A stretch of DNA of 64,000 bases from Thermoanaerobaculia bacterium (GCA_035637095.1 DASPXX010000232.1:1741-65740); one strand, 5' to 3'. Counted from the stretch's first letter, positions 12,764 through 64,000 are shown. Numbers and translations: made by a program. Notes: generated by a model from the sequence alone, not told the origin.

Positions 12764-12818
12764 CTCGGCGGACCCAGGCCGGCGTGGTAGGCTCGCTCCG
12801 CCTTCCGGGGAGCCCCTG

Positions 12819-14612: not shown

Positions 14613-14624
14613 GATCGTTCCTCC

Positions 14625-45009: not shown

Positions 45010-45186
45010 GGCGGTTGAGTCCCATCACTCCCCTGGCGGCGTGCATCACTCAGGTGCCGAGGGAGTGATGCACGGGCCGGCGGCAGTGTCGCAGCTCGCG
45101 AGGGGAGCGTTGCGGGAGGGGAGAAAAACAGAGGGAGGCAAGCAATCTGCGATAAGATCTTCTCGTCCACCTCCAAAGGAGCCCCT

Positions 45187-47385
45187 GTGACCCCATCCTC
45201 CGCCCTTCTCCGCCGCCGGCTCGGCCGCGTTGCGATCCTCGTTGTGTCCGCCTTCGCCGGGAGCTTCGCTCTCTGGGCGTGCGGTCCGTTCTTCCCTCGC
45301 TGGCTGCTCGGCCCCGAGCAGCTGCTGGTTCCGGCTCCCGAGGGGCTGCTCCGCCATGAGATCGGCCGCTTGAAGCTGGCGTCGGGGCCGTCCGCCGTGC
45401 CGGCCGAGAATCCGTGGCAGCAGACGTCCGAGGTCGACGTGGCCGACTTGCGGAAGGCTCTCGATGCGGCCAAGGTCCCGGCCGGGCGCCGCGAGGGCTT
45501 GGTCGAGAGCTATTCGAAGGTGCGTGCGGCCCTGGCGCAGTACGCCGCGGGAACCGTCGTGTTCGAGAACGTCTCCGAGCCGCTCTATCCCGAGGCGGAG
45601 ATGGGCGGCGAGGAGGCCGCCGCGCCGCCGGTCCTGCCGCGGGGCCTCACGGTTCCGGAGGGGCTTCCGGGCGAGCTCGCCGGCTATCTGCAGGGGGCCA
45701 TCGCCTATCACCGGGGGAATCTCGACGCCGCGATCTCCTCCTGGGAAAAGCTGTTGCAGCGCCCCGAGGCGGAGCGCCGGTTCCGCTCCACCTGGGCGGC
45801 GTTCATGCTCGGGAAGACGCATCTGCGCGCCAAGCGGCCGGCGGAGGCGGTGCGCTGGCTCGAACGCACCCGCGAGATCGCCGGGCAGAAAGGCTTCGAG
45901 GACAGCCTCGGCCTCGCCGCCGCCAGTCTCGGGTGGGAGGCCCGCGCCGAGCGCGATCTCGGGCATTACGACAAGGCGCTCGTGCTCTATGCCCGCCAGG
46001 CGCGGGACGGCGACCACACGGCCTTGAGCTCGGTCCAGCTCGTGGCCCGTCAGGCCTTCAAAGCCGGTCCCGACGCTCTCGCGTCCATCGCCCGCTCGGC
46101 CGAGGCGCGGGGCGTGCTCACCGCGTTCCTGGTGTCCGATGCCAGCGCGCCCTGGGATCTGGAGGGGCTCGTGGAGCCCGACGAGGCCGCCGATCCGGAC
46201 GCGCCGAAGATCCCGCATCCCGGCGGGGACGCCTGGCTCGCCGCGCTCAACAAGGCCGGGATCAAGGTCGTCGAAGGGGCCGAGCGGATCGGTTGGGCGG
46301 CCTATCAGGCGGGCAACTTCGCGGCGGCCCGGCAGTGGCTCGACCGCGCGCCGGCGGATGGGCCCATGACGCGCTGGATCCGCGCCAAGCTGCTGCTGCG
46401 CGACGGCAAGCTGGCCGAAGCGCAAAAGCTTCTGGATCAGGCGGCGGCCACCCTCCCCGATCCGCAATTGACCGAGAACGAGCTCTACTTCCACAGCGAC
46501 GGCGAGACGGGCGGCAAGATCGCCACGCCTTCCCTGGCCGGCGGCGAGTCGGCGGCGCTCCTCACCACCGAGGGGAAGTACACCGAGGCTCTCGACCGGT
46601 TCCTCAAGAGCGGTTTCTGGGTGGACGCCGCGCACCTGGCCGAGCAGGTCCTCACCGTGGAGGAGCTCAAAGCGTACGTCGACGCCCACTGGCCGGCCAG
46701 TCTCGTCAAGGACGTCCCCGAAGACCCGGAGTACCACGAGGGGCTCCAGGCCGCGCCGTCGAACGTGGCGGCCCGGGACATCCGCTACCTCCTCGGCCGG
46801 CGTCTCGTGCGCGCCGGGCGGTACGACGAGGCGAAGCCGTATCTTGCTGAATCGATGGAGGCGCCGCTCAACGCCTTCACGACGGCTCTGCGCCAGGGGC
46901 AGGACGCCGGCCAGCCGGCCGATCCGCGGGCCGCGGCGCTCTTCCGCGCCGCCTGCGTCGCGCGCAAGCAGGGCCTGGAGCTGATGGGGACGGAGCTCGA
47001 TCCCGACTGGTTCCTCCTCGAAGGGGAGTATGAGATGACGGACTTCCCGGACCAGATGAAGGGGCGCGGCGAAAACCAGCACCTGAAGCCCGGACCCGGC
47101 GAGCTCCAGCAGATGGAGCAGAACCGTCCGGACCCCGACAAGCGGTTCCACTACCGCTACCGCGCCGCCGCGCTCGCCTGGGACGCCGCCGGCCTCCTCC
47201 CCGACGGCTCGGACCAGAAGGCGCGCATCCTCGCCACCGCCGGCACCTGGTTGAAGACCCGCGACGCCGACGCGGCGCGGCCGTTCTACAAGGCGCTCCT
47301 CGACTGCTGCTCGGACACGAAGCTCGGACAGGCGGCCCAGCGCGCGCGGTGGTTCCCGGAGGTGCCGGAGTGCGAGCAGGAGTGA
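45187..47385 (+). CDS. Large hypothetical protein with N-terminal signal/possible lipobox and TPR-like helical repeats
   Basis: GTG 45187 after AAGGAG. VAILVVSAFAGSFALWAC. Repeated helical hairpins (GNLDAAISSWEKLL, GHYDKALVLYARQA, GNFAAARQWLDRA, GKLAEAQKLLDQA). Confidence 0.75.
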   Translation: MTPSSALLRRRLGRVAILVVSAFAGSFALWACGPFFPRWLLGPEQLLVPAPEGLLRHEIGRLKLASGPSAVPAENPWQQTSEVDVADLRKALDAAKVPAGRREGLVESYSKVRAALAQYAAGTVVFENVSEPLYPEAEMGGEEAAAPPVLPRGLTVPEGLPGELAGYLQGAIAYHRGNLDAAISSWEKLLQRPEAERRFRSTWAAFMLGKTHLRAKRPAEAVRWLERTREIAGQKGFEDSLGLAAASLGWEARAERDLGHYDKALVLYARQARDGDHTALSSVQLVARQAFKAGPDALASIARSAEARGVLTAFLVSDASAPWDLEGLVEPDEAADPDAPKIPHPGGDAWLAALNKAGIKVVEGAERIGWAAYQAGNFAAARQWLDRAPADGPMTRWIRAKLLLRDGKLAEAQKLLDQAAATLPDPQLTENELYFHSDGETGGKIATPSLAGGESAALLTTEGKYTEALDRFLKSGFWVDAAHLAEQVLTVEELKAYVDAHWPASLVKDVPEDPEYHEGLQAAPSNVAARDIRYLLGRRLVRAGRYDEAKPYLAESMEAPLNAFTTALRQGQDAGQPADPRAAALFRAACVARKQGLELMGTELDPDWFLLEGEYEMTDFPDQMKGRGENQHLKPGPGELQQMEQNRPDPDKRFHYRYRAAALAWDAAGLLPDGSDQKARILATAGTWLKTRDADAARPFYKALLDCCSDTKLGQAAQRARWFPEVPECEQE

Positions 47386-47412
47386 GATCGAGAATCCACC
47401 GGAAGGGCGCCC

Positions 47413-48381
47413 ATGCACGTCATCATCCCTGACGACTATCAGGATGCCGTGCGCGGTCTCGACTGCTTCGCGAAGCTCGCGGACCACGGCCACCGGGTCA
47501 CCGTGTTCAACGACACGGTCAAGGACCTCGACGCGCTCGCCGGGCGGCTCCGCCCGGCCGAAGCCCTGGTCCTCATCCGCGAGCGGACGCGGATCACCGC
47601 TGCGCTGCTCGACCGGCTCCCCCACCTGAAGCTGATCAGCCAGACCGGCAAAGGCGTCGCCCACATCGATCTCGCCGCCTGCACCCGCCACGGCGTCGCC
47701 GTCGCGGCCGGCACCGGATCGCCCTACGCGACGGCGGAGCTCACCTGGGGCCTGGTGCTCGCCGCGATGCGTCACATCCCGCAGGAAGCCGCGCGGCTGC
47801 GCGCCGGACAGTGGCAGACGACGCTCGGCACCGGCCTGCGCGGGCGCACGCTGGGCATCTGGGGATACGGCAAGATCGGCACCCTGGTGGCGGGCTATGG
47901 GCGGGCCTTCGGGATGAACGTGCTGGTCTGGGGACGCGAGGGCTCGCTCTCCCGCGCGAGCGCCGACGATTACTCCGTTGCCGCCGGCAAGGAAGTGCTG
48001 CTGGAGAGATCCGACGTGCTCTCCCTGCACCTCAAGCTGACCGCGGAGACGCGCGGCATCGTCACCGCCGCCGACCTCGGCCGCATGAAGCCCGAGGCGC
48101 TCCTCGTCAACACCAGCCGCGCCGAGCTGATCGCACCCGGAGCCCTGGAAGCCGCCCTGCGCGCCGGACGTCCCGGCTGCGCCGCGGTCGACGTCTACGA
48201 AGAAGAGCCGATCCTCGGCGCAAAGCACCCGCTCCTCGCCCTGGACAACGCGGTCTGCACGCCCCACCTGGGCTATGTGGAGAGGGACAGCTACGAGCTG
48301 TATTTCGACCAGGCCTTCGACCACGTCCTCGCGTTCGCCCACGGGACGCCGATCAATGTGGTGAATTTGGAGGTGGTGTAG
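47413..48381 (+). CDS. D-isomer-specific 2-hydroxyacid dehydrogenase
   Basis: GIWGYGKIGTLVAG (NAD fold), NTSRAELI, DVYEEEP, CTPHLGYV catalytic His region. Confidence 0.9.
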   Translation: MHVIIPDDYQDAVRGLDCFAKLADHGHRVTVFNDTVKDLDALAGRLRPAEALVLIRERTRITAALLDRLPHLKLISQTGKGVAHIDLAACTRHGVAVAAGTGSPYATAELTWGLVLAAMRHIPQEAARLRAGQWQTTLGTGLRGRTLGIWGYGKIGTLVAGYGRAFGMNVLVWGREGSLSRASADDYSVAAGKEVLLERSDVLSLHLKLTAETRGIVTAADLGRMKPEALLVNTSRAELIAPGALEAALRAGRPGCAAVDVYEEEPILGAKHPLLALDNAVCTPHLGYVERDSYELYFDQAFDHVLAFAHGTPINVVNLEVV

Positions 48382-51300
48382 GAGCCGTCTCCGCCTGATC
48401 CTTCGCAGGGACGCGGTCCTGGAGGCTGATCGAATATTTGAGCAGCGAAGCCAGCTCAGAGCCAGCCATCTGGATGGCGTGGTTGAAGTGGATCTGGCGG
48501 TCGTTGAAGTCGTCGTACAGGTAGTAGAGACCGCAGATATTCTCGTAATAGGCCGGCCGAAGGGTGAACATCTCCTCGCTGATGTTCAGGTCTCTTTGAG
48601 CCGCCCGGCGAATCTTCGGGATTTGGTCCTGAATCTCCGGCTTAAAAGGACCTACTTCATGGAAGCAGTACCAGTACGCCAGGCCGTACGACATTCCCGA
48701 CGAGAAGGGAGAGAAATACATCGGTGCATCCATGTGTGCCTGCAGCTCCATCAGCTCCGAGGCCCAGGTGACCACATTTCTAGAGTTGCCGGGTCGCATC
48801 ACGGCGTCCTGGATGAGCACGGTCAATCCGTTCAACCGGTTGATCATCGGAAAGCTGTAGCGGGAAATCGCTTCCGTGAGGTCGTGCCGCAGAGATTCGT
48901 CAATGGATTCTCCTCCCGATGGCCTGCCGGTCCACTCGAACCGGATCGCCTCCAGGTCGTCGATCTCCAAATCGAGATGATAGGCCGCGAGCCCCAGAGA
49001 GCAGACGATGTTCAGAGCAAACGAAGTGATGAGGTTGGGAATGGGAGCTCCTTTCCCTTCCAAGCTCCCATCGCTCCGGCTCCGGTGATAGAGCTGGCCC
49101 GCCTTGCGAAGGCAGTAGACAGAGATAGCTTTCAGATAGCGCCAGTAACCACGCCGAGCAGCGACCTTCTCAGGGCTCCCCAGAGGTTTCAGAATTTTCT
49201 TTAAGTCGTTGAGCTTTTCATCCTCCGTCGTACCTGGTTCATCAATGGCCCAGGTGAAGAGTTGACGAACCGAGAGCTCCCACCAGAAATAGAGCGCGAC
49301 GGTCTCGCCGACCTTGAGGAGCTCGCGTGCTGCGTTCTCGTAAAAACCGCCCCGCTCGATGTACTTGGCTCCCACCATGATGAAGCTCAGAGCCATGGTG
49401 AGGCGGGTATCGTCCGCATGCGTTGTGGATTCATCAAAATTCAGCAGCCGCCGATCCGGGAATTGATGCTGCGGTTTTTTGTCCGCCCGCCAGATCCCCA
49501 GCCAGCCATCCACGGTGCCGCCCGAAACCGGATGAATGCCATCGATAGGAATTTCCAATCCCTCGCCACCGTGCTCCACCGGAGTGGAAAATGCCTCGAG
49601 CCAACAGGTACAACGATCGACAAGCTCCCGCTTGAATTCAACCGGATCTTTGGTTTCCCTGACCGGGCCGACCAGCTCCTTCAAATTCGATAGCCGGTAA
49701 AGGAGGCCATGGAACGAGACCCTCGCGATCATCGCCTCTGCCAGATCATTGAATGCCTCGCCGGCCGCGCTGTAGACAAAGGAGGGCCATGCCCCAGGCG
49801 AAAATGTTGGCCATCGCTCATCGAAGGCTGTCCAGACGTTCAGCTGGTTCTTCGAGCTCTCCCTCCGCAACGCAATGTAACGCCGAAGCTCATGCAATGC
49901 CATGCAGTAGTGATAGTGAGCTTGGTGGAGATATCCCTCCTGCCCCTTCCACGGTGGCCTGAGCTCCCTTTTCTGGCTGCCGGACCGCTTCTCTGCTCCG
50001 CCCTCCTTCGGCTGCCGAACAATATCCTCGAGGCGTACCAGCTGCCGCCCCTTCATGAAGAAGAGGTCGCCCGCCTTGTTGTGCAGCTCGGAAATGATCA
50101 GGGAAAAATGGGCGTGCTTGGTATCGGTCGGCCCTTCGGACGGTTGGAGGATCATGTCGCGGACACAGGGCAGGATGCGGCGCAGGTCCCAGAGCTCCTT
50201 CTCCACGAATGCGGCGCTTGTGTCAACCGCACCCGCCAGCTTTTCTCCGACCCAGGCCTCGGCAAACGCCGGTTGGAAGAGGAGAGTCAGGTGCTTGATC
50301 TCCTGCAGCCGCTCGTCGGGCGAGGTGAAGATGTCCTTGCTGATGCCGAGGGTAACCGCGAGCTTTCTGCCCCTGTTGTCGAGCATCGAAAGCAGGAGTG
50401 AACGGGCCAACGTATGGGCATTCCTGTATTCGGCCTCGGCACGCTCGTAGTTCCGCGACAGCTCGAACGTCATTCCGATCTGCAGCATCAGACGGAGGCG
50501 GGTAATTCCCCAGGTCATGTACAGCCGCGCGTTCCGCTGGCCTGCAGGCAGGGCCCCCACGATCTCGAGGACGGGAGATTGCTCCTCGAACATCTCACCG
50601 CCGCCGATCACTTCCCGCAGATCAGCGTCGAGGAGGGAGATCGCCTTGCGGTAGTAGAGCCTCGCGGTCTCGTACTCCTGATCGAATTCGTAGAGCTCGC
50701 CGAGACCCGCCATCAAGTCGTGGATCTCCTTTTCCCTCCCTTCCTTGAGCCGCTCGATCGCCGACTCATAGACCGATTTGAGCGCAAGCGACTCATCGAG
50801 GGTGAAATTGAACGCCGCCATCTCCTCCTGCGACTCGCGCGAGATATACTCGATCTCGCTCGACACCTCGCTCCGGAAGCGGAAGTCGTACATACCGTTC
50901 CGGATCGGATGCAGAAGGCGCGATGTCCAGTCCGTGACCAGCTTCTCCAGGATATCCCGCATGTTCGGCGGCCGGTGAATGTCGACGAACTCGTCGACAC
51001 GCTCCAGGTTGCTCCAGGAGAACGCCCGCCGGTGGAACTTGAACAGGAAGTCCGCCAGGAACAAGACAGACATGGCCAGCTTGTCATCCTGTTCCAGGAC
51101 GTGTGGCTTGAACAACACAAAGGTCAAATGCCTGTAGGCTCGGGCGAGGAGCTGGATGCGGAAGCGAGCCACATCGTCAAAGACCAGGATGTGGTCACAA
51201 GGGAAGTCGCGCTCCCGAATTCCTGGATCCAGGATGACGCGACCGACCGGCCTCACAAAGCTCGCGAGAAGCTCCTTGAGCCTCTTCGGATTCCCCTTGC

Positions 51301-54300
51301 TGCGATAGGCCAGAAAATGAATGAAGTCCTCAAGGATTTCTTGTTGCTGAGGTGAGGCAAGGCCGCTCCCTACATCGAAGATCTGAAGATTGTAGGCTCC
51401 ACTCGGAGCCGTGTCGGGTTTGACGAAAGCCTCATCCGCATAGCTCTCGACGCTCAAGGAGAACGAAGGGAGCCTCCGCTTCTTCAAAGAAGCTTGATAG
51501 AGGTCTCTCGCCCGTTGGGTCTGCACCTGGATGTACGACTTGATCGCCTTGTCCATGCTGCCACCACCCTGCCGGCTCACGTCGTCGGTGAGTAGGGAGG
51601 GCAGGTACACCTCAGCGTTGAAGATGTTGGTGAGCAGGGGCTGGCGAGCTGTTTGATCAGCCAACCACTCGTCGTGCAGGTTTCTGCCACCCACGAAGAT
51701 AAAGCGGGCCGGAGCCGACGAAAGGAGGTTCTTCATGTCGGCCAGCAGCCCGTGAAGCTCCGCCGACCTCCTGCGCTCTGCGTGGAGGATCTCCTTCTCC
51801 TGTGTGTTGCCGCTCGAGCCGATGTCGGCTCCTGGCTCGACGCGGCCCTCCAGCTTGTCGAGCTCGTCGAACACGAAGGTGATCTCCGGCGTCGGAAGGC
51901 TGATCAGCTGGTTCTTCCCGGCGGGCAGAACGATCGTTGAGCTTCTGATCTCGCCGAGAATCTGAAGGAACGCGAACTCCACGGTCCTTGGATCCACGGG
52001 CTCCTGTTGCACGTGGCGCACCCGCTCGTCGATGAGAAAGCCACGCAACCAGTTCGACGGCTGCGGCACTCCCGTCGTCGAGGTGAGACTGGTCGTGGCC
52101 GAGAGCTGGTCGATGACCTCGTCGATCTTGTTCAGGTTCTCCCGGTAAGGGAAGATCGGGAGTCGCCGTAGAGTGAGCTTCCCGATGAAGACGAAGAGGA
52201 AGAACAAGAGCACGTGATAGACGCGGACATGGACTCCACGCTCGAAAAGATAGGGCTGCGCGTCGGGCCAGTCTGCTTCCTGGTATGGGAACAGATAGAA
52301 AAGGAGACGCACCTCCTTCCTCTCGTAGTAGGAACTGACCATGGACGTGGCCAAATTGTAGGTGAGGATGTGAAAGATCTCGTCTCCCCACGGCAGCTTG
52401 CAGATCAAATTGACGGCACCTGGACCCAGCTGGCGACCTTCAAAGGGTAAACAGATCTTCTTGTATCCACTCATCCTCGTGTCGTCGAGCTTTGCCCTAT
52501 CCAGCGAGCTCGCATTGGGCATGGCAAACCAGCGCTCTCCGACGATGTTGACCAGGAAGAGAATGATCAACAAACCCAGAAGGCGGCCCAGATTGGCCAC
52601 TGCACTGTTCCAGGCCAGAAAGACCTTCTCGTATCTCGCACGCAGGCTCACCAGCATCGCCTGAATGACGCGACGGTGATCGAGGCGCTCGAACCCCAGG
52701 TTGACCGAGCTGACGATGACAGGAAGCCAGGCGCGATACACGATCCAGGGAAATGTGACCTCTGCCAGGTCCCTCAGGATGCTCTGGTGTTCCGCGAGCC
52801 CCCGGTCCGACCTGAACTTCCCCAGGTCGATGGCTCCATCCGCCCGCGGCCGCAGAAAGGGCCGCACGACCCACTCATACTCGACGAAAGAAAGGACCAG
52901 GATGGAGAGGAAGACACACAGAGTCCAGAAGATTTCCTCGCGCACGCCATGGAAGACGCTAAAGCCCTTCAGATGATTCTCGCTATTTTTTTCGTCGACC
53001 ACGAGCCCGGTCATCTGATTCAGATTGACCGCCGGGCGAAGGAACTGGACCGGCTGCCTTGGACCGGGCCAGAGCTCGTCGATCGGCTGCAAGACGTTGA
53101 CCATTGACTTGATCAGGCGTGTATAGGTCTTGTCGACTTCCAGCTTCTCTCGGAGCTCCTTCTCTGGCCCGGACGGCGAAACTGCAATCTGCTCTACAAT
53201 TTGATGGATGTTCACCTCGCTCAGCTTTGCAACGACCGGGTGAATCAGTTGCAGAGAGATCGTGATGGCAAGAATTGCCTTGAACCAAAGGACAAGAAGG
53301 GGTTGTGGAGAGAAGTGCACGCTCCCCCCCGTTTTCCTGTCCTTGGAAAACGTCAGAAACAGTCCGGCAGAAATGACCATGGCGACCAAAGCTAAGATCA
53401 TCGCCCAGACGATTCCCAGATAAACGATCAACCCCAGGCCGGCTAAAATGAACAGGAGCCCAGGCAAGGAATAAGATTGCGCAGCGATGTCATGGATCTG
53501 CCCAGAGATCTTGTTGGGCCTCAAGAGAAGCACATAACTTCCTCGCAGAATGCAGCCCATCCCGAGCAAGACACAGGCGAGGCCAATATTTCCGAAGCTC
53601 TCCTTGAGCGGAGGGAACGAATAGATCTTGAAGACGGTGAACGGCATAAAAACGACATAGACCACCAAGAGAGACAAGAAGGCTGAGTTGATCCCACTCA
53701 ACCGGCCGAACTTCCACTGCTCGTCCCCTGGGCGGAAGGAAGTGCACTGTCCCCACAGGTACATCGCACAGATGGCGCAGAGAAACCGGCTCATGCCTAG
53801 AGCGGGTGCACCAAAAGGCCCGGTGAACCAGATAATCAAGGCATAGATCGAAAGACCCAGAAACGAGATGAGTGAACCAGGCCGTTGGCCCCTTTTGTTT
53901 TTGGCGCGAGAGATGAGATCCAGCACCTCACGAGCGAAGAGCGCCGGGTACAGGCAGAGGAAGAAGAGAGGAGCAATGACGAACCCGACAAGGAGGTTGT
54001 GCCGGGTGCCCTTTCCCTCCTGAAGGCCGAGGCTGATGAACTCCCCGAACTCCGAGACCAGCAGAGCCAGCAAAAGAAACAAGACGACCAGAGCGAGGAC
54101 TGCAATGCGGTCCCAGAACGTGGCCCGGCCTACATTGCTCCGCAGGAACCGCTCGAAGACCTCTCGCTTGTACTCGTCCAGGCAGTACCGGACGAAATTG
54201 GTTTTTCCGACGCCGCGGTGCCCGGTGACCAGATAGGCGCCCCGGCCTCCCGTCCGCAGGAGCTGGTCGGTGAAATAGGCCCTCTCCCCCTCCCGGCCAA

Positions 54301-54403
54301 TGAGGACCTCGTCCGCCGGCGCCTCGACCTCGCCGCGGGCTTGATACCGCCCAAACGGAGCCGCAAGGACCTTCCTGGAGAAGAATCGATCTTTCACGGG
54401 CAC
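48353..54403 (-). CDS. Giant (2016 aa) membrane-embedded P-loop NTPase with split Walker motifs (KAP-like topology) and a long TPR-like helical C-terminal region
   Basis: Walker A GHRGVGKT (aa 61-68, nt 54200-54223). About 11-12 hydrophobic TM-like segments between aa ~100 and ~745. Walker B-like ITFVFDELDKL (aa ~841-851, nt ~51857-51877) then RFIFVGGRNL. C-terminal ~1100 aa helical repeats (YETARLYYRKAISLL, YERAEAEYRNAHTLA). Visibly lower GC than neighbours. Confidence 0.9.
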   Translation of the reverse strand: MPVKDRFFSRKVLAAPFGRYQARGEVEAPADEVLIGREGERAYFTDQLLRTGGRGAYLVTGHRGVGKTNFVRYCLDEYKREVFERFLRSNVGRATFWDRIAVLALVVLFLLLALLVSEFGEFISLGLQEGKGTRHNLLVGFVIAPLFFLCLYPALFAREVLDLISRAKNKRGQRPGSLISFLGLSIYALIIWFTGPFGAPALGMSRFLCAICAMYLWGQCTSFRPGDEQWKFGRLSGINSAFLSLLVVYVVFMPFTVFKIYSFPPLKESFGNIGLACVLLGMGCILRGSYVLLLRPNKISGQIHDIAAQSYSLPGLLFILAGLGLIVYLGIVWAMILALVAMVISAGLFLTFSKDRKTGGSVHFSPQPLLVLWFKAILAITISLQLIHPVVAKLSEVNIHQIVEQIAVSPSGPEKELREKLEVDKTYTRLIKSMVNVLQPIDELWPGPRQPVQFLRPAVNLNQMTGLVVDEKNSENHLKGFSVFHGVREEIFWTLCVFLSILVLSFVEYEWVVRPFLRPRADGAIDLGKFRSDRGLAEHQSILRDLAEVTFPWIVYRAWLPVIVSSVNLGFERLDHRRVIQAMLVSLRARYEKVFLAWNSAVANLGRLLGLLIILFLVNIVGERWFAMPNASSLDRAKLDDTRMSGYKKICLPFEGRQLGPGAVNLICKLPWGDEIFHILTYNLATSMVSSYYERKEVRLLFYLFPYQEADWPDAQPYLFERGVHVRVYHVLLFFLFVFIGKLTLRRLPIFPYRENLNKIDEVIDQLSATTSLTSTTGVPQPSNWLRGFLIDERVRHVQQEPVDPRTVEFAFLQILGEIRSSTIVLPAGKNQLISLPTPEITFVFDELDKLEGRVEPGADIGSSGNTQEKEILHAERRRSAELHGLLADMKNLLSSAPARFIFVGGRNLHDEWLADQTARQPLLTNIFNAEVYLPSLLTDDVSRQGGGSMDKAIKSYIQVQTQRARDLYQASLKKRRLPSFSLSVESYADEAFVKPDTAPSGAYNLQIFDVGSGLASPQQQEILEDFIHFLAYRSKGNPKRLKELLASFVRPVGRVILDPGIRERDFPCDHILVFDDVARFRIQLLARAYRHLTFVLFKPHVLEQDDKLAMSVLFLADFLFKFHRRAFSWSNLERVDEFVDIHRPPNMRDILEKLVTDWTSRLLHPIRNGMYDFRFRSEVSSEIEYISRESQEEMAAFNFTLDESLALKSVYESAIERLKEGREKEIHDLMAGLGELYEFDQEYETARLYYRKAISLLDADLREVIGGGEMFEEQSPVLEIVGALPAGQRNARLYMTWGITRLRLMLQIGMTFELSRNYERAEAEYRNAHTLARSLLLSMLDNRGRKLAVTLGISKDIFTSPDERLQEIKHLTLLFQPAFAEAWVGEKLAGAVDTSAAFVEKELWDLRRILPCVRDMILQPSEGPTDTKHAHFSLIISELHNKAGDLFFMKGRQLVRLEDIVRQPKEGGAEKRSGSQKRELRPPWKGQEGYLHQAHYHYCMALHELRRYIALRRESSKNQLNVWTAFDERWPTFSPGAWPSFVYSAAGEAFNDLAEAMIARVSFHGLLYRLSNLKELVGPVRETKDPVEFKRELVDRCTCWLEAFSTPVEHGGEGLEIPIDGIHPVSGGTVDGWLGIWRADKKPQHQFPDRRLLNFDESTTHADDTRLTMALSFIMVGAKYIERGGFYENAARELLKVGETVALYFWWELSVRQLFTWAIDEPGTTEDEKLNDLKKILKPLGSPEKVAARRGYWRYLKAISVYCLRKAGQLYHRSRSDGSLEGKGAPIPNLITSFALNIVCSLGLAAYHLDLEIDDLEAIRFEWTGRPSGGESIDESLRHDLTEAISRYSFPMINRLNGLTVLIQDAVMRPGNSRNVVTWASELMELQAHMDAPMYFSPFSSGMSYGLAYWYCFHEVGPFKPEIQDQIPKIRRAAQRDLNISEEMFTLRPAYYENICGLYYLYDDFNDRQIHFNHAIQMAGSELASLLKYSISLQDRVPAKDQAETAPTPPPNSPH

Positions 54404-54442: not shown

Positions 54443-54470
54443 ACTATAAGAGCCTGGGGGCTTTCGTCAA
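54443..54470 (-). promoter_or_regulatory. Sigma-70-like promoter for the giant gene: TTGACG - 16 nt - TATAGT
   Basis: Minus-strand reading of 54465-54470 (TTGACG) and 54443-54448 (TATAGT), about 40 nt upstream of GTG 54403. Confidence 0.4.
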
Positions 54471-54486: not shown

Positions 54487-54708
54487 TCAGACTGCTCCAT
54501 GCGAGATCCTCCTGGAGGTCTCCCGCTGAATCTGCTCCTCGTCCCAATCCGGATGCTCGGACGCGAGATGGCTCGCGATCATCCGCCGGGCGGAGGCGAA
54601 CATGTCGCTCGCGATCTTGAGGCGCTCGGCGCCGGTCTTCGCCCGGAGAATGCGGGCCATGTCGGCATCCACCAACTCGATCCTGAGATCGTCCAACGAG
54701 CGCGGCAT
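54487..54708 (-). CDS. Small hypothetical protein (73 aa) upstream of and co-oriented with the giant gene
   Basis: MPRSLDDLRIELVDADMARILRAKTGAERLKIASDMFASARRMIASHL... all-helical. Only the last 73 codons of track ORF 54487..55215 look coding. Confidence 0.45.
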   Translation of the reverse strand: MPRSLDDLRIELVDADMARILRAKTGAERLKIASDMFASARRMIASHLASEHPDWDEEQIQRETSRRISHGAV

Positions 54709-54722
54709 ACGGATATCGTAGG

Positions 54723-55512
54723 CTACCGCCCCGCCTTCCGCCACACATACCGCGCCGCCGCCACGTCCTCGACGGCCAGGCCCAGCGATTCGAAGAGGGT
54801 GATCTCTTCCGGCGATTGCCGGCCGGGGAGGCGGCCGATCAGCACGTCGCCGAGCTCTCCGGCGATGTGGTCCTCCCCAAGCTCCCCGGCGCGCATCGGG
54901 ATGAGCAGCTCTCCCGCCTCGGCCAGGGCGGATTCGCGGCGGTCGATGAAGACGCGGGCGCGGCGCACGGCCTCGGTGTCGAGCTCGCGGGTGGCCGGCG
55001 TGCAGGCTCCCGCGGCGCTGATGTGCGCTCCCGGTCTGGCCACCCGCCTGCTGGCGCGGGAGGATGCGGGCGACCTGGCCCTGCTCGGCTCGGGCGTCCA
55101 GGCGCGCTCCCATCTCGCCGCGATGAAGGAGGTCCGGCCCTTGCGCCGCGTCCGCGTCTGGAGCCGCCACCCCGAGAACGCCCGCCGCTTCGCCGCCGAG
55201 GAATCGGAACGCCATGGCCTATCTATCGAGGCCACTGCCACGGCCCGGGAGGCGGTCGAGGGGGCGGACCTCGTCTGCACGGCCACCTCGGCGCGCGAGC
55301 CGGTCCTCGAAGGCGCCTGGCTCGCCAGCGCCTCCGTCGCCGTCCCACAGGGCTCCCGGCATGACGCCCAGGAGGCCGCGGATTAAGGTGATCACCGTCT
55401 TTCCGGGCAACCGGGCTCCGTTCTCCTCTTCGAGGGAGGCATGGGGAAGCCGCTGGCGAGCCTCGACGCCGCCGCGGTCACCGAGACCCGGACCGCGGCG
55501 GTGAGCGTCGCG
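54723..55512. pseudogene. Scrambled ornithine cyclodeaminase/mu-crystallin gene fragments (C-terminal third inverted, middle third, frameshifted N-terminal piece)
   Basis: Minus 55034..54723 reads PGAHISAAGACTPATRELD...ITLFESLGLAVEDVAAARYV. Plus 55036..55323 reads LATRLLAREDAGDLALLGSGVQARSHL...ADLVCTATSAREPVLEGAWL. Plus ~55382..55512 reads KVITVFPGN (frameshift) GKPLASLDAAAVTETRTAAVSVA. Order and orientation are incompatible with one intact gene. Confidence 0.8.
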
Positions 55513-55568: not shown

Positions 55569-55869
55569 CTGCACGTCATCATTCCTGACGACTATTAAGA
55601 TGCCGTGCGCGGTCTCGACTGCTTTGCGAAGCTCGCGGGCCACCAGGTCACCATCTTCAACGACACGGTCAAGGACCTCGATGCGCTCGCGCAGCGGCTC
55701 TACCCTGCCGAGGCACCCGCTCCTCGCCCTGGACAACGCGGTCTGCACGCCGCACCTGGGCTATGTCGAGAAAGACAGCTACGAGCTCTATTTCGACCAG
55801 GCCTTCGACCAGGTCCTCGCGTTCGCCCACGGGACGCCGATCAATGTGGTGAATTTGGAGGTGGTGTAG
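55569..55869 (+). pseudogene. Decayed paralog of the 2-hydroxyacid dehydrogenase gene (start lost, in-frame TAA, ~660-bp internal deletion)
   Basis: CTG replaces ATG. gactattaagat versus gactatcaggat in the intact copy. The 5' ~140 bp is joined directly to the last ~158 bp (HPLLALDNAVCTPHLGYVEKDSYELYFDQAFDQVLAFAHGTPINVVNLEVV*). Confidence 0.85.
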
Positions 55870-55933
55870 GGGTGAGTGAGGGATGGGCGGGCGGAGGCCC
55901 CCGCTACGAGGACCTTGACAGGACTGTGCCCCC

Positions 55934-58900
55934 TCACGGCAGCTCCCGCACGAACACCCCCACCCCGTTCCTCAGCTCGCCGGCCAGCTCCTTCAGCCGC
56001 GCGTGGTGGGTGAAGAGGATGACCTGGGTCTTCTTGGCGAGGTCGGCGAGGACTTTGAGGGTGGCGGCGGTCCGGTCGTCGTCGAAGTTGATCAGGATGT
56101 CGTCGACGATGAAGGGGAGCGGCTCGGCGTGGGCGAGGTAGCGCTCGAGAGTGGCGAGACGCAGGGAAAGATAGAGCTGGTCGCGCGTGCCGGAGCTCAT
56201 CCCCTCGACCCGGACCTTCTTCCCTCCCTCGCGCACCCCCACCAGGACAGGCTCGTCCTCGCGGTCGTAATCGGTCTGCAGGCCGCGGTAGCGCCCGAGG
56301 GTCAGAGCCGTGAAGAGGTCTCCGGCGCGGCGCAGGAGCGGCGCCTGGTTCTCGGCGCGGTAACGATCGACCTCCCGGCGCAAGACCGCGGCGGCGAGAC
56401 GGAGGCGGGTGTAGCGCTCCACGTTCTCCCGCAGCGTGGCCAGGATCTCCTGCTCGCGCTCGGCGGCGCGGGCTGCGGCATCGCCGCCGGTCAGGTGAGC
56501 GAGCTCCAATTGCTCCTTCCCCAGCTCTTCCCGCAGGTCGAGCGAGCGCCTCTCCAGCTCTTCGACCTCGCGGCCGAGCCGGTCGATCTCGGCCGGCAGG
56601 AGATCGCCGTCCACGCCCGCGGCCTCGCGCTCCAGATCGTCCAGGGTCAAGCCCTCTCCGTCCAGGAGGAGCTCCCTTTCGGTCTCTTCCAGGGCTGCGG
56701 CGATTTTCTGGGATTCGGCGGACCTCGCCTCTGCCTCCTCCAGGCCGGCCTCGCCGTCGCAACCGGCTTCCCGGACGAGGAGAGCGAGCCTCTCTTCCAT
56801 CGCCCGGCCGGTGGTCCCGGCGTCCCGGATCTCCTCGTCCAGCTTCTGGATGCGTTGGTCGAGGTCGCGCCGGCGGGTGGCGCGCTGGCGGGCTTCGGCC
56901 AAACGGGCATGGAGCTGCACGGCGATCTGGTCGGCGGGCTGGCCGGCGAGGTCGGGAGCGAGCGCCTCGGCGAGCACGCCGACCGCGGTCTTGAAGGCTT
57001 CGATCTCCCGGTCGAGCGCGGCGATACGGACATCCAGACCCGCCGCCTGCTGGAGGCTGCCGAAGGCGTCGCGAAGGGTCCCGACGAAGTGGGCGACCTC
57101 GCCCGGCAGAGCCTGGCGGTCGAAGCCGAAGCCGCGGACGGCCTCCGCCCAGGCCTCCTGCCATTCCTCCAGGTCCGCCGCCGCCGCGGATTCGGCGTCG
57201 CTCGCCGCGGCCAGCTCGGCCTCGGCATCCCGCAGGCCTTCCCCGAGGCGGGCACGCTCGCGCGCTGCCTCTTCCAGGGCGCGGACGGTCTCTTCGGCGT
57301 GGGTGAGGAGGGGCTCCAGGAGATCCGAAGCCGCGGCTTGCTCCGTCACGGCCTTGAGCGCCCGGACCAGCGCGGCGTGGTGGCTTCGGCGGTTCTTTTC
57401 CAGGGTTTCAACTTGATGCCTCTGGAGGCGCAAGGCCTCGGCTCGGGCGCGGAGCCTCTCGTGGCGGGCGGCCCAGGCCTGCATTTCTTTGGGCGTCCGC
57501 GGGGCGAAGCCGCAGGGGCTCCAGAGCGCGATCCACTCGTCGCGGAGGCAGTCGTCCTGTTGCGCGACGGCGGCCTCCTCAGTCTTCAGCGTCTCCAGCG
57601 CCTGGACGAGCTGGTCCTGGCGGGCCAGGAGGTGCGCCTGCTTCTGGACGCGGTCGGCCTCGCGGCGGAGGCGGTCGGCCAGATCGTCGGCTTCCCCCAC
57701 GGCCTTTTCATAGATGTCGGCCTGACCGTCCGGGATCTCCTCGCCGGCGAGCCAGGCGCGGAGCAGGAGGTTCCACTCGCGATTCCGCCGGTCGCGCGCG
57801 GCGTGCAGCTCGTCCTCGGTGGGCACGGTGCCGGCGCGGCGGATCTCGTCCAGGTCCTGCTCGACGCCGGCCTGCTCGGTGCTCAGGGCCTTCCCCTGGT
57901 CGTCCAGGCCGCGCCGGCGCTCGGCGAGGGCGGCGAAGCTCTCGCGGAAGCGCTCCAGGGTCTCGGCGGGCGGCACCGGCAGGGCCTCCAGCTCCTCGGC
58001 GGAGCCGCTCCACAGACCGAGGCGGGAGAGCTCGATGCGCAGCTGCACCTCGTCGCGGCCGAGGGCCTCGCCCGCCTCGGCCAGAGCACGGTCCAGGTCT
58101 CCCGCCTTGCGGACGGTTTCGGCGCGGCGGCGCAGGGCCGACGGATCACGCGGCTCCGGACGGGAGGCCAGGGCGTCGCGGGTGGCGGCGAGCCGGCGCT
58201 CCGCCTGCTGCAGATCGCGGCGCGCCTGCTTGCGGCCGGCGTCCAGCTCCTGGCGACGTTGAGCAAGCTCCTGGATCCGCTGCCAGCGCTCCAGGGCGGG
58301 GCGCAGCGCCTCGGCCTCGTCCAAGGTCAGGCCGGGGCGGATGTCCTCCAGCAGCTCCTCGGCGCGGACGCGCAGCTCGCCGCGCTCGGCGAGCAGGCGG
58401 TTGCGGCTCTTCTGGTCCTCCTCGAATTTGCGCACCCCCTGGTGGAGCGCCTCGATGGTCTCCGCCCGATCGAGAACGTCGCGGGGGACCTCCAGGCCCG
58501 TGGCCTCGTCGCGCAGCCCGGCGAGATCCATCTCGGCGCGGGATCGCCTCTCGCGGGCGGAACGGAGGGCGTCCTGGACCTCGCGCCGCCGCTCCGGGAA
58601 ACCGGCGGGCAGCACAACCACCTCGCCCAGGGCCTCGCGCCGGGTGAGCCAGCCGCGCCGGTTGGCCAGGCGCGGCAGGGCGCGGCGCAGGCGGGCAAGC
58701 CGGTTGCGCTCGGTCTTCCACCCGGCCAGCCGGCTTTCCAATTCGGACGATTCCCCGCGTCTCTTCTCCAGCTCCCTCCGCCGGCCGTCCCACTCGCGGC
58801 CGGAGAGGGAGTGCTCGGCTAGCTCGCGCTTCGTCTTCTGGTGCTCGGCGAGGCCCAAGTTGATCGCCTTGACCTGGCCGCGCGGCCGGAACAGGGCGTC

Positions 58901-59410
58901 GGCCTCTTCGTCGAGCGAGCCCAAGACCTTGCGCAGGTTGCGCGTGCCGAGGCCCGCGGCGAACAGGGCCTGCCCCACGTCCCCCTTCTGCTCCAGCAGC
59001 TCCTGGCCCCCCTGGAGGAGGGCGTCATGGTCGATGCCGAAGAGGGTGGCGAAGAGCTTCTCGTCGATCCCGCGCAGGCAGCGGTCGAGGAGCCCGTCGT
59101 CGAGCGGGCTCTCGTCGTCCGCGGCGAGGAGCGTGCTCTTCTGCCCCTTGCGGCGCAGGAACGCGAGCTCGCTGCCGTCGGCGAGGCGGAGCCGCCCGCC
59201 GACGCGCAGCTGGTCATAGGAATGAAGGAAGTCGTCGCCGGTCTGCTTGGGGAAGCCGTAGAGCAGGGCGCGGAGGGCGCGCAGGGCCGAGCTCTTCCCC
59301 GCCTCGTTGGGGCCGAAGACGAGATGCAGCCCCGGTTCTCCGCCCGACAGGTCGAGCCGGCGCTCGGTGAACGGGCCGAAGGCCTTCAAATAGAGCTCGA
59401 GGAGCCTCAC
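55934..59410 (-). CDS. SbcC/YhaN-like SMC-type AAA ATPase (1158 aa)
   Basis: N-terminal Walker A FGPNEAGKSS, about 900 aa coiled-coil (Ala/Glu/Arg/Leu-rich), C-terminal SSGTRDQLYLSLRLA signature, Walker B FIVDDILINFDD, ILFTHH. GTGA overlap with the upstream nuclease gene. Confidence 0.9.
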   Translation of the reverse strand: MRLLELYLKAFGPFTERRLDLSGGEPGLHLVFGPNEAGKSSALRALRALLYGFPKQTGDDFLHSYDQLRVGGRLRLADGSELAFLRRKGQKSTLLAADDESPLDDGLLDRCLRGIDEKLFATLFGIDHDALLQGGQELLEQKGDVGQALFAAGLGTRNLRKVLGSLDEEADALFRPRGQVKAINLGLAEHQKTKRELAEHSLSGREWDGRRRELEKRRGESSELESRLAGWKTERNRLARLRRALPRLANRRGWLTRREALGEVVVLPAGFPERRREVQDALRSARERRSRAEMDLAGLRDEATGLEVPRDVLDRAETIEALHQGVRKFEEDQKSRNRLLAERGELRVRAEELLEDIRPGLTLDEAEALRPALERWQRIQELAQRRQELDAGRKQARRDLQQAERRLAATRDALASRPEPRDPSALRRRAETVRKAGDLDRALAEAGEALGRDEVQLRIELSRLGLWSGSAEELEALPVPPAETLERFRESFAALAERRRGLDDQGKALSTEQAGVEQDLDEIRRAGTVPTEDELHAARDRRNREWNLLLRAWLAGEEIPDGQADIYEKAVGEADDLADRLRREADRVQKQAHLLARQDQLVQALETLKTEEAAVAQQDDCLRDEWIALWSPCGFAPRTPKEMQAWAARHERLRARAEALRLQRHQVETLEKNRRSHHAALVRALKAVTEQAAASDLLEPLLTHAEETVRALEEAARERARLGEGLRDAEAELAAASDAESAAAADLEEWQEAWAEAVRGFGFDRQALPGEVAHFVGTLRDAFGSLQQAAGLDVRIAALDREIEAFKTAVGVLAEALAPDLAGQPADQIAVQLHARLAEARQRATRRRDLDQRIQKLDEEIRDAGTTGRAMEERLALLVREAGCDGEAGLEEAEARSAESQKIAAALEETERELLLDGEGLTLDDLEREAAGVDGDLLPAEIDRLGREVEELERRSLDLREELGKEQLELAHLTGGDAAARAAEREQEILATLRENVERYTRLRLAAAVLRREVDRYRAENQAPLLRRAGDLFTALTLGRYRGLQTDYDREDEPVLVGVREGGKKVRVEGMSSGTRDQLYLSLRLATLERYLAHAEPLPFIVDDILINFDDDRTAATLKVLADLAKKTQVILFTHHARLKELAGELRNGVGVFVRELP

Positions 59411-60672
59411 GCCTCCAGCGTCTCCGGAGCGGCCAGCAGGCGCGCGAGCAGCAGGTCCCGGGCTTCGTCGAGGAGGGAGCGCAACCGCTCCGGATCGCCG
59501 GGCCGGGCGGCCTCGCCCTCCGCGAACAGCTCGGGCGGGAGCTTGCGTTCGAGGTCGGCGAAGCTCTCGGCGAGCGCCGCCAGCGCGGCCTCGTCCGCGG
59601 CGAGCTCGCGGACGGTGTGCAGGAGGCCGCCCAGGGCGTCGTCCCGCTCCAGGACGGCGAGGTCGGCGGCGCGGCGGGTGCGCACCTGAACCTTCTCGAT
59701 CCACAGCGAGCCGTCGCCGAAGCCGGAAGCGATGCCGCGGATCTCGGCGATCCAGCGCTCCGGATCGGCGGCGAGGTCGTCGTGGACCGGGCAGGCGCCC
59801 TCCAGGCGGATGCGCGCCGCCAGAGGGCGGCCGTCCGCGGCGTCGAGCGCCTTTTCGAGCGCCTGCTGGATGCGGTCGAGCGCCTCGCCGGTCCCCGCCA
59901 CGCCGGCCAGGCTCACGGGACAAGTAGCCCAGCGGAAGACATCCAGATCGCGATGCTCGGCGCGGACCACCTCGCGCCCCTCGACGGTCACCAGCGTCGC
60001 TCCCTTGGCGCCGGTCTCGCGGGCATGCCGCCCCTGGAGGTTGCCGGGAAAGACGATCCAGGGATCGCGGGAGACCACCTCGCGGACGTGGACGTGGCCG
60101 AGCGCCCAAAATTGATAGCCGCGGGAGCGCAGGCCGTCGACCGAGCAGGGAGCGTAGGCGGCGTGCCCCTCGCGCCCGTCGAGGCTGGTATGGAGCAGGC
60201 CGATGTTGAACAGGTGCGGCACGGCCGCGGGATAGCCGGCCGACAGGTCCTCGGTCACCGCGACGCTCGCGAATCCCTGGCCATGAAGGGCGACGCCGAG
60301 ATCCTCCAGAACGGCCGTCTCCGGCCGCTTCGTGGAGAACACCTTCACATTGTCCGGGGGCCGCAGGACCCGGGTGATCTGGCTCGCGGCGTCGTGATTG
60401 CCGGCGATGACGAACGCGCGGATGTCCGCCTCGCGCAGGCGGTTCATCTGGGAGACGAAGAAGAGGCCGGTGTTGTAGTCCTTCCAGTCGCCGTCATAGA
60501 GGTCGCCCGCGAGGAGCACGAAGGCGACCTCCTCCTCGATCGCCAGGTCGACCAGCCGCTCGAACGCCCGCCGCGTCGCCCCGCGGATCTCCCCCACCGG
60601 CGCCCCCTCGTAGCGTTCGAGACCGCGGAGAGGGCTGTCGAGGTGGATGTCGGCGGCGTGGAGGAATTTCAC
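59407..60672 (-). CDS. SbcD/YhaO-like metallophosphoesterase nuclease
   Basis: FLHAADIHLD, LLAGDLYD, IAGNHD, LGHVH calcineurin-like phosphoesterase motifs. Confidence 0.9.
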   Translation of the reverse strand: MKFLHAADIHLDSPLRGLERYEGAPVGEIRGATRRAFERLVDLAIEEEVAFVLLAGDLYDGDWKDYNTGLFFVSQMNRLREADIRAFVIAGNHDAASQITRVLRPPDNVKVFSTKRPETAVLEDLGVALHGQGFASVAVTEDLSAGYPAAVPHLFNIGLLHTSLDGREGHAAYAPCSVDGLRSRGYQFWALGHVHVREVVSRDPWIVFPGNLQGRHARETGAKGATLVTVEGREVVRAEHRDLDVFRWATCPVSLAGVAGTGEALDRIQQALEKALDAADGRPLAARIRLEGACPVHDDLAADPERWIAEIRGIASGFGDGSLWIEKVQVRTRRAADLAVLERDDALGGLLHTVRELAADEAALAALAESFADLERKLPPELFAEGEAARPGDPERLRSLLDEARDLLLARLLAAPETLEA

Positions 60673-63700: not shown

Positions 63701-64000
63701 TACAGGGCGGCGAGGTCGGACGGGAGGCCCGGCCGCGCCTCGACCCCCCAGGCCGACGCCGTCAGGGTCCAGACCCTCTCTTCCTCTCCGCGCTTCCCCC
63801 GCAGAGCGACGGCCCGCCGCGGAGACTCCTCGATCTCCAGAGGCAGCAGGTCGTACGGAGAGCGAACCGCGCCGCTCGCGGGCTGCGGGAAGGCGGGAGG
63901 AGAGGCGGCACAAGACCATGAACGGATGACGTCCCCCGGCTCCAGGCCGGCCGTCGCTCCCGTCGATGCCGGAGTCACCTTTTCGACCACCACACCGGCC
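60724..64000 (-). CDS. CHAT-domain protease with long TPR array and N-terminal PDZ-like segment; 5' end probably beyond the window
   Basis: C-terminal CHAT with LVHFACHG (His) and LSACDTG (Cys). More than 10 TPRs (GDLESAESLFRQAIATYEK etc). N-terminus AGLEPGDVIRSW is PDZ-like. The frame stays open to the window edge. Confidence 0.9.
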   Translation of the reverse strand, partial: AGVVVEKVTPASTGATAGLEPGDVIRSWSCAASPPAFPQPASGAVRSPYDLLPLEIEESPRRAVALRGKRGEEERVWTLTASAWGVEARPGLPSDLAALYRDGKASVEAGDLAAAERSWRSAAQSARTAGDGRLAGWLLERLARTLAKAGKWPEADAAYQEALADLERESEHPAAAELLRVWGDSFQVRGAWDAALERYRKALELDRMTAPKSLAAARSLGSQGIIAAKRGDHDAAEDLLKQALAIREELAPGTTAVAEGLLYLGMLARRSGDLAASEEYLVRGEQILRRLAPDSLDHGRFLQSLGNLAWDRGDLESAESLFRQAIATYEKTLPEGLHVVGCLTNLANVAVQRGDLATADNLLLHVLALQERTARDELDRSSILTSLGNIAVNRGDLESAGAYFRRALAILEKLAPGGAEIADSLSSLGRMASLQGDFATARTSLRRALELQEKLAPGSIRIANILEHLADVEADHGGGLATAEGLLRQALATVEKAAPESLTSSVVLRDLGEIVARRGRLQEALALERRAVKLQRKLFPEGNNGEEARTLYSLGRVERRMGRSQEGISDLCHAVDILDRQWARLGGTPEAKTSFVAVFADTYQACLEGLIKLGRPVEAFHVLEKGRARSFLELLAERDLRLSDLPPELAAERRRVNAEYDRVQSEFAPLSAGRDDAAIGRLTGELRDLRSRQEEILARIRQESPRAAALHDPAPLDLAGARAALDPGTVLLEYAVGAERSWLFVVQSANVKGSGLSVFPIALGATSLRDQVESFRLVLKNPGSEPVELQALARRLYDLLVRPAEAQIAGAQRILFSPHGPLDTLPFAALVRGGHYLVEWKPIHSVLSATVYAELAKSRPPRRAHGEERLVAFGDPVYRPLTPDAAADPEVREAVRRGLTLRPLPSSGDEVKSIATLYPQAEIYLGRDATEERAKSIGREARLVHFACHGVLDEQFPLNSALVFTQPEKLAEGKDNGLLQAWEIFQSVRLDADLVTLSACDTGLGRETAGEGLVGLTRAFQYAGARSVLASLWGVADRSTAGFMKSFYGYLHSGMSKDEALRAAQIDHIREKAGPSHPFHWAAFQLTGDWQ

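Follow-up and report, generated by a model that had tools for sequence, protein, structure and literature searches.

The KAP family of P-loop NTPases was reportedly described by Aravind and colleagues in 2004 with two or four inserted helices, and the STAND class is said, after Leipe, Koonin and Aravind in the same year, to have an hhGRExE-type motif N-terminal to the P-loop. Four inserted KAP helices are also cited in PMC13001434. KAP proteins were first proposed as regulators of membrane-associated signalling complexes (summarised in PMC13001434 and 10.1101/2025.10.07.681051), and single-gene KAP NTPases confer Walker-B-dependent phage defence (bioRxiv 10.1101/2025.10.07.681051). Tmn, of the YobI family, carries two helices inside the P-loop domain and has a solenoid of helices as its tail; it assembles into a decamer in the membrane, which exports Mg2+ when a phage protein is sensed (PMC13001434). 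Here, we analysed a giant gene in a 64,000-nucleotide (nt) stretch of DNA from a Thermoanaerobaculia bacterium (GCA_035637095.1, DASPXX010000232.1:1741-65740; the whole stretch is called the window), the product of which appears to be an NTPase of this kind that is interrupted at two sites by some twelve membrane helices.

The gene lies at 48353..54403 on the minus strand and, by open reading frame (ORF) call and translation, encodes 2016 amino acids (aa). A public gene call for the same product (P0001) uses a GTG start at 54397, two codons later, giving 2014 aa; an identical 2014-aa product is on record from a Thermoanaerobaculia (Acidobacteriota) metagenome-assembled genome, and the 2014-aa gene was independently called as one gene on two other assemblies. 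An earlier note, made from this DNA alone, had described the product as a membrane-embedded, split NTPase, and the elements it quoted are all in the translation: Walker A, GHRGVGKT, at aa 61-68 (nt 54200-54223), the Walker B element ITFVFDELDKLEG at aa 841-853 (nt 51845-51883), in which FVFDELDK occupies aa 843-850, RFIFVGGRNL at aa 899-908 (FIFVGGRNL at aa 900-908), and every hydrophobic stretch. The spacing it gave between Walker A and Walker B, about 780 residues, agrees with the 779 residues from K67 to D846. In 38 homologues, G61, R63, G64, G66, K67, D846, E847, D849, K850, R907 and D911 are invariant. That the catalytic residues never vary speaks for an ATPase switch that works, with an intact active site; we lean, by a narrow margin, towards the gene encoding an active STAND-like AAA+ switch ATPase of the KAP-related superfamily.

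The invariant positions of the 38-homologue alignment fall in five blocks (aa 10-97, 548-600, 800-942, 1019-1100 and 1101-1262), and the first three of these are the NTPase core, with a mean identity to homologues of 0.48-0.72. The core is thus cut into three pieces, delimited by alignment conservation and AlphaFold2 secondary structure, with the second lying between an insert of ~10 helices and one of 2 helices. Piece 1 (aa 10-97; 54113..54376, minus strand) contains the conserved PFGRY strand, LIGREGE (hhGRExE-like), strand b1, Walker A and helix a1. Piece 2 (aa 548-600; 52604..52762, minus strand) consists of strand b2, LPVIVSSVNLGF, and helix a2; its length is exactly 53 aa in 38/39 homologues, and N568 and L569 are invariant. 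Piece 3 (aa 800-942; 51578..52006, minus strand; mean identity 0.72) reads Walker B and then FIFVGGR-N-LHDEW, and holds strand b4 (FIFVGGR), with the invariant and sensor-1-like R907, and strand b5.

Relatives without the interruptions bear on how these pieces belong together. A phmmer search of 1.84 billion cluster representatives returned 1131 at an expect value (E) of 1e-3 or below, of which 911 reached E<=1e-10 and 432 reached E<=1e-30; most are 1900-2500 aa in length. A scan of 185,579 species-representative genomes, which was pattern-limited so that its counts are a lower bound, gave 137 encoded relatives (~0.07%), and 78 loci were retrieved. Across the family, the number of inserted helices runs from 0 to ~14, at the same two sites. 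Walker A lies 161-181 aa from Walker B in relatives with no inserted helices (L051 and L070, for example), 200-260 aa from it in Saprospiraceae and Flavobacteriaceae members with a 2-helix hairpin after a2, and ~360 aa from it in Kordia, which has 4 helices between a1 and b2. The distance grows to 470-720 aa in members with 4-9 helices and to 700-1180 aa in the clade of the window protein, for which a crude hydropathy count gives ~9-16 helices. All members share one motif order, namely GRxx, GAYLxTGxRGxGKT, the b2 strand, FxFDELDK, AKFIFIGGR, YRSxGxPKK, DKL...KFH...FSWxNLE and AAFNFTLDES, and hhalign of the spliced window clade against the small-insert clade gave a probability of 100 (E 2.6e-52, 413 columns). 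Since unsplit relatives carry the shared motifs in the same order and the two clades align with this probability, the three pieces are, on sequence evidence, one ancestral domain, with the membrane segments as insertions at two sites. The split NTPase of the earlier note thus holds as a single domain, in three pieces rather than two.

Predicted structures give a similar picture. An AlphaFold2 model of aa 1-1200 (mean predicted local distance difference test, pLDDT, 74.9; predicted template modelling score, pTM, 0.76) runs through b1 (55-61) and a1 (67-80), helices at 96-406 and 487-513, b2 (562-568) and a2 (576-596), a helix at 601-625, a soluble region, a helix at 728-747, then b3 (840-846), b4 (900-904) and b5 (930-934), and ends in the lid helices. 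The predicted order, b1-a1 / membrane helices / b2-a2 / membrane helices / b3-a3-b4-a4-b5, would be the canonical AAA+ order interrupted twice. We also modelled a spliced protein (aa 10-97 + 548-600 + 800-1110), aligned to full-length homologues, which reached a pLDDT of 78.5 and a pTM of 0.77. Foldseek matched this model to 37 PDB entries at E<=1e-3 (probability 1.0, 290-500 aligned columns), with ORC4 (7jpq_D, E 1e-5), archaeal Orc1/Cdc6 (2qby_A and 1fnn), PAB2304 (2qen) and TnsC at the top (E 1e-5 to 4e-4); CED-4 comes next, with E 1e-3 and likewise a probability of 1.0. From these matches, the core is predicted to consist of an AAA+ base of ORC/Cdc6 or STAND type together with a lid. At the level of sequence, phmmer had no match among PDB sequences for aa 1-1200, and the full-family profile had none there that was meaningful; the spliced profile had one match, the N-terminal P-loop region of ORC4 (E 1.3e-3). 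A viral structure library returned generic AAA+ proteins only.

The likeness to KAP proteins proposed in the earlier note is borne out indirectly. The window protein, intact or spliced, does not match KAP_NTPase (PF07693; gathering score 20 bits) at E<=1. However, three unambiguous homologues, linked to it by tblastn at E 3e-36 to 4e-35 and by the hhalign match between the clades, pass the gathering score: L075 (40.8 bits, E 2e-10, covering Walker A to Walker B), L053 (24.5 bits) and L070 (20.7 bits). PF07693 also matches 9/14 small-insert relatives at E<=0.1. As these three homologues connect the window protein to the model, its membership of the KAP-related superfamily by transitive homology is a well-supported assignment, and it is too diverged and interrupted for the curated Pfam model. 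With the KAP family (PF07693; PifA of the F plasmid, Kidins220/ARMS and Enterococcus faecalis EF_KAP) it shares Walker A and Walker B, with key residues invariant, transmembrane helices inserted inside the NTPase domain, a long C-terminal region of unknown or repeat structure, and organisation as a single gene; its homologues with 0-2 inserted helices are those that exceed the PF07693 threshold. It differs in having ~10 + 2 helices at two sites, against the 2 or 4 described for KAP, in its two periplasmic domains, and in family-specific modules (DDKL...KFH...FSWxNLE, AAFNFTLDES and a C-terminal YLxDDFND...H) that are absent from the Pfam model.

Tmn likewise places its membrane helices between Walker A and Walker B, and the spacing from its G66/K67 to D276 is near that of the 2-helix relatives (PMC13001434). 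It is a stand-alone gene, the membrane is its site of action, and its long cytosolic alpha-helical tail is proposed as the sensor; the window protein, by contrast, has ~12 helices to the 2 of Tmn (a number that some distant relatives do have) and is about twice its size. No PADLOC model matched L060 and L053 (2-helix members), L051, L047 or L059 at E<=0.1, and the YobI family is absent from all Pfam outputs for the window protein and its relatives.

Several features are of STAND type by inspection, with their roles tentatively assigned. LIGREGE, an hhGRExE-type motif, occupies aa 34-40 before the P-loop, with G36 and R37 at least 90% conserved; R907 follows b4; G1037 is invariant in the KGNPKRL of the helical domain, in which the Pro varies among relatives (GNSKK, GNAKR); and the His of KFH is conserved. 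Like members of the STAND/ORC-Cdc6 clade (Avs, bacterial NACHT, MalT, CED-4/Apaf-1), the window protein combines an NTPase with a long helical C-terminal region. Known STAND proteins are soluble or have terminal membrane effectors, whereas here the membrane module sits inside the core fold. None of the curated STAND models in Pfam (NACHT, NB-ARC, nSTAND, iSTAND) matches the window protein, and the relatives give weak, mostly sub-threshold matches to them; the full-length iSTAND match of L051 is marginal (24.8 bits, where the cut-off is 24, falling to 20.0 bits in an 800-aa scan). The window protein has just two Pfam matches, to the N-terminal half of AAA_16 (PF13191; E 5e-6, a sub-threshold 27.5 bits against a cut-off of 32.6, covering profile positions 2-76 of 167) and to one weak TPR unit; four relatives exceed the AAA_16 cut-off, also over the N-terminal part only (L057, 46.5 bits; L075, 37.0; L060, 34.1; L047, 34.0). 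NCBIfam and PADLOC gave no match to the window protein (PADLOC at E<=1), and our literature searches found no description of the giant-NTPase architecture.

A Kyte-Doolittle scan and AlphaFold2 secondary structure place 12 membrane helices between Walker A and Walker B, in line with the 11-12 segments first estimated. Insert 1 (aa 98-513; 52865..54112, minus strand), with ~10 transmembrane helices, sits between helix a1 and strand b2. Insert 2 (aa 601-749; 52157..52603, minus strand), between helix a2 and the Walker B strand, consists of two transmembrane helices around a predicted periplasmic domain of ~100 aa (loop 2, aa 626-727). Both inserts enter the Rossmann-type core at surface loops. 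The predicted periplasmic loop 1 (aa 393-486, nt 52946-53227) is hypervariable, with a mean identity of 0.07. In loop 2, the Cys pair C651/C668 (nt 52400-52453 region) is kept in 30-31/36 homologues, and this conservation suggests a disulphide-stabilised external domain. A 12-helix model with the N-terminus inside has 31 Lys+Arg in inside loops and 11 in outside loops, which fits the positive-inside rule. With this topology, all NTPase pieces, the lid, the helical module and the ~750-aa tail are predicted to be cytoplasmic, and the details of the arrangement are likewise predictions. The membrane helices are the least conserved structured part of the protein; TM1-9 have a mean identity to homologues of 0.25.

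The core is followed by a lid/helical domain (aa 1019-1100; 51104..51349, minus strand), placed by the alignment, the spliced model and Foldseek, which carries YRSKGNPKRLKELL; its motif is YRSKGNPKRL, with R1034, S1035 and G1037 invariant, and it resembles the STAND GxP motif or AAA+ sensor-2. Next comes a highly conserved helical module in the alignment (aa 1101-1262; 50618..51103, minus strand; mean identity 0.63) with DDKL...FKFHRRAFSWSNLE...AAFNFTLDES, found in every relative, including those without inserted membrane helices. The remaining C-terminal region (aa 1263-2003; 48395..50617, minus strand), delimited by the alignment, is of undefined fold, presumably helical, with a mean identity of 0.29-0.46. 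The earlier note had given ~1100 aa of helical repeats here; as NTPase-associated modules reach ~aa 1260, an undefined tail is indeed present but spans ~750 aa, and of the TPR-like character proposed for the C-terminal half, Pfam detects a single weak TPR-like unit, at aa 1231-1257 within the helical module. Near the end of the tail lies a family-wide motif, YYLYDDFNDRQIHFNH (aa 1960-1975; 48479..48526, minus strand), identified by alignment across loci. This Y-L-x-D-D-F-N-D-x3-H-F motif stands ~40-60 residues from the C-terminus and is kept in both clades, including membrane-free members (loci L003-L084); it may serve in catalysis, in metal binding or as a latch. A word-index search with the C-terminal 304 aa gave only fragments from the giant-NTPase family, to which the C-terminal module is confined. 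One homologue, on a 2-Mb contig (L005), is split into a 1676-aa ORF (10001-15031) and a 212-aa ORF (15346-15984; P0020 and P0187); the latter bears the region of the C-terminal motif, and either the gene is naturally split or the locus has a frameshift or is a pseudogene. A search with the spliced profile returned only fragments or split genes.

The family is rare and patchy. Its hosts cover at least 8 phyla or classes and are mostly large-genome bacteria with complex lifestyles (Myxococcota, Acidobacteriota, Saprospiraceae); cultured carriers are Sorangium cellulosum So ce56 (with the locus near 11.77 Mb of NC_010162), Plesiocystis pacifica SIR-1, Dyadobacter beijingensis DSM 21582 and Octadecabacter dasysiphoniae. 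A rough neighbour-joining tree separates a large-insert clade, in which Acidobacteriota, Myxococcota and Alpha- and Gammaproteobacteria are intermixed, from a small-insert clade of Bacteroidota, Nitrospirae, Ignavibacteria and Thiosymbion. Candidatus Magnetocorallium paracelense has two diverged paralogues (L054 and L069), on different contigs. The GC content of the gene is at least 3 points under that of its flanks in 64/73 loci (mean -7, extreme -18) and never above it. Gene contexts are unrelated between genomes, with no conserved neighbour gene among ~80 loci (maximum 7, generic ABC or REC proteins), consistent with the single-gene system first proposed. Patchy spread, the lack of a conserved neighbour and systematically low GC are typical of an accessory gene that stands alone and is exchanged horizontally, and not of the housekeeping family in conserved core-genome context that the earlier note had set against its own proposal. 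Taken jointly, we hold the structural and evolutionary claims with high confidence.

In the window, the giant gene lies within a low-GC island of ~7.3 kb bracketed by diverged repeats, with a GC of 0.545-0.613 against 0.66-0.74 in the flanks. A 158-nt direct repeat is present at 48225-48382 and 55713-55870 (96% identity). By repeat comparison, the left copy (48225..48382, plus strand) is the 3' end of an intact 2-hydroxyacid dehydrogenase gene (47413-48381, plus strand), the true downstream neighbour, which is convergent with the giant gene; the last 30 nt (10 non-conserved codons) of the giant ORF extend into it. The right boundary (55570..55870, plus strand), also found by repeat comparison, is a dehydrogenase remnant with an internal deletion, which joins the 5' ~150 nt of the dehydrogenase (85-93% identical) to its 3' 158 nt (96% identical); the 5' end at 47414-47574 is found again at 55570-55725, directly before the right copy of the repeat. 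This remnant closes the ~7.3-kb segment. The lower GC and the duplicated gene fragments at the boundaries had both been noted before and were confirmed here, as was a near-consensus promoter: a sigma-70-like match, TTGACG-16-TATAGT (54470..54443, minus strand), agrees with the consensus at 10/12 positions, by pattern match only, 40 nt 5' of the giant-gene start.

Besides the giant gene and its promoter region, the island contains a 73-aa antitoxin-like ORF and a truncated ornithine cyclodeaminase fragment, and no integrase or transposase was identified. The 73-aa ORF (54490-54708, minus strand; MPRSLDDLRIELVD...) matches the Rv0078B-related antitoxin family in Pfam (PF18993, E 7e-11) and stops 20 nt before the giant gene's -35 box. 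It was rejected as a conserved partner, being absent at all other loci with a homologue of the giant gene, and a cognate toxin for it was likewise not identified. The ornithine cyclodeaminase/mu-crystallin fragment (~55027-55386, plus strand) covers only Pfam profile positions 116-233 of 314 and strengthens the impression of a region scrambled from gene fragments. A 1098-aa ORF (45046-48342, minus strand), directly downstream of the giant gene and on its strand, was rejected as an operon partner; it is a high-GC artefact overlapping real genes on the plus strand, namely a TPR gene (45187-47385) and the dehydrogenase gene (47413-48381). Upstream of the island are two large conflict-system-like genes (55934-60109 and 60724-63993, both on the minus strand); one encodes an AAA_27/SMC-type ATPase with a partial LmuB-like PADLOC match (E 3e-13), and the other TPR and CHAT (caspase-like protease) domains. 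An ORF between them (59407-60672) has a weak endonuclease-effector match only.

Our best explanation, to which we give slightly better than an even chance, is that the protein is a KAP-related, STAND-like AAA+ switch ATPase acting as a stand-alone, horizontally mobile membrane sensor-effector, most likely in conflicts with phages or other adversaries. A cue would be sensed by the cytoplasmic tail, or else by the variable loops in the periplasm; nucleotide exchange or hydrolysis would then re-pack b1-a1, b2-a2 and b3; this re-packing would pull the 12-helix bundle and drive oligomerisation; and a membrane pathway would be opened or remodelled, with ion or metabolite leakage and growth arrest. 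As four membrane helices are directly continuous with the core (those that follow a1 and a2 and those that precede b2 and b3), re-packing should reach the bundle. With neither a partner gene nor an enzymatic effector domain at hand, the most economical effector is the membrane module. We infer both the coupling and the effector role of the membrane module, and a role in defence is suggested only by analogy, with PifA, EF_KAP and Tmn; a function in defence and in membrane permeabilisation we consider possible, at rather less than an even chance.

Several points weigh against this explanation. STAND ATPases are slow switches, and mechanical coupling of one to a membrane is conjectural. For the intact aa 1-1200 model, Foldseek found no neighbour in the PDB better than E 0.5, since its core is broken up too much to be aligned locally and nothing there resembles its membrane bundle; contacts between the three core pieces in the intact protein are putative. 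At 25% identity, TM1-9 look more like an anchor or a non-specific pore than like a selective channel, and such poor conservation leaves the retention of as many as 12 helices unexplained. Of the checks that the earlier note had proposed, defence-system models were silent, with no PADLOC defence model matching the window protein or its relatives, and the neighbourhoods of homologues are mixed metabolic and regulatory genes with no obvious defence islands. A tblastn search with the conserved core found no relatives in plasmid or phage collections.

Other explanations fare less well. That the giant ORF is an artefact could be suspected because high-GC DNA gives many long spurious ORFs, such as the 1098-aa one at 45046-48342, and because its last 30 nt enter the flanking repeat; but hundreds of full-length 1900-2500-aa homologues with colinear motifs across phyla, a GC below that of the flanks, the single 2014-aa gene called on two other assemblies, and membrane-free relatives that prove the motifs to belong to one domain refute this, and we assign it a negligible probability. 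The twelve transmembrane helices, a typical number for transporters, the invariant ATPase catalytic residues and the export of Mg2+ by Tmn, the nearest functional analogue (PMC13001434), would fit an ATP-powered or ATP-gated transporter in which the 12-helix bundle is a solute pathway for ordinary physiology, such as ion homeostasis or export. This we judge improbable, as no fold or sequence likeness to any transporter was found (Foldseek E >=0.5; nothing for the profile against PDB sequences), the membrane helices are the least conserved structured part, the helix number varies from 0 to ~14 while the rest is constant, which is hard to square with a defined substrate pathway, and the distribution is rare, patchy and suggestive of horizontal transfer.

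A transmembrane signalling scaffold, comparable to the eukaryotic KAP protein Kidins220/ARMS or to a MalT-type STAND regulator, has more to recommend it, albeit we still consider it unlikely. Here, the periplasmic loops or the membrane bundle would sense an envelope or extracellular cue and the ATPase would control the assembly of cytoplasmic partners on the tail. The two predicted periplasmic regions of ~100 aa, one with a conserved Cys pair, the absence of a detectable enzymatic effector domain (Pfam, PADLOC, NCBIfam), hosts of large genome and complex lifestyle, response-regulator or histidine-kinase genes near ~20/80 loci, and the role in membrane-associated signalling complexes originally proposed for KAP proteins (PMC13001434; 10.1101/2025.10.07.681051) all speak for it. 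However, no partner gene is conserved, the two-component neighbours are generic, abundant families that differ between loci, periplasmic loop 1 is essentially unconserved (7% identity), and the systematic low GC and patchy cross-phylum spread suggest a selfish or conflict-type accessory gene and not a component built into signalling. Perhaps a little less doubtful, yet well short of our favoured sensor-effector explanation, is that the family represents an unrecognised class, in which a STAND/KAP switch is stitched at two loops into an expandable bundle of 0 to ~14 helices and its nucleotide state is sent mechanically across the membrane. Such a protein might be a pore gated by ATP, by which an infected cell is killed or halted in growth, or else a receptor that signals from the outside in and uses its hypervariable periplasmic loop to recognise phage or foreign surface molecules, with YLxDDFND...H as a new catalytic or latch site.

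Membrane helices inside a P-loop fold have been known only as inserts of 2-4 helices, in KAP proteins and YobI/Tmn, whose role in phage defence through action on the membrane has only recently been shown. What sets the present family apart is the two insertion sites, the ~12 helices, the periplasmic domains, the graded series of insert sizes and the family-specific conserved modules. This natural series, from 0 to ~14 helices on a constant chassis, is a ready-made experiment on the coupling of an ATPase to a membrane. The family has hundreds of diverse members that lack annotation and a Pfam, NCBIfam or PADLOC model, and its cultured representatives make the hypothesis testable. If these proteins are indeed a defence system, they would add a large single-gene class of membrane effectors that current defence finders miss.

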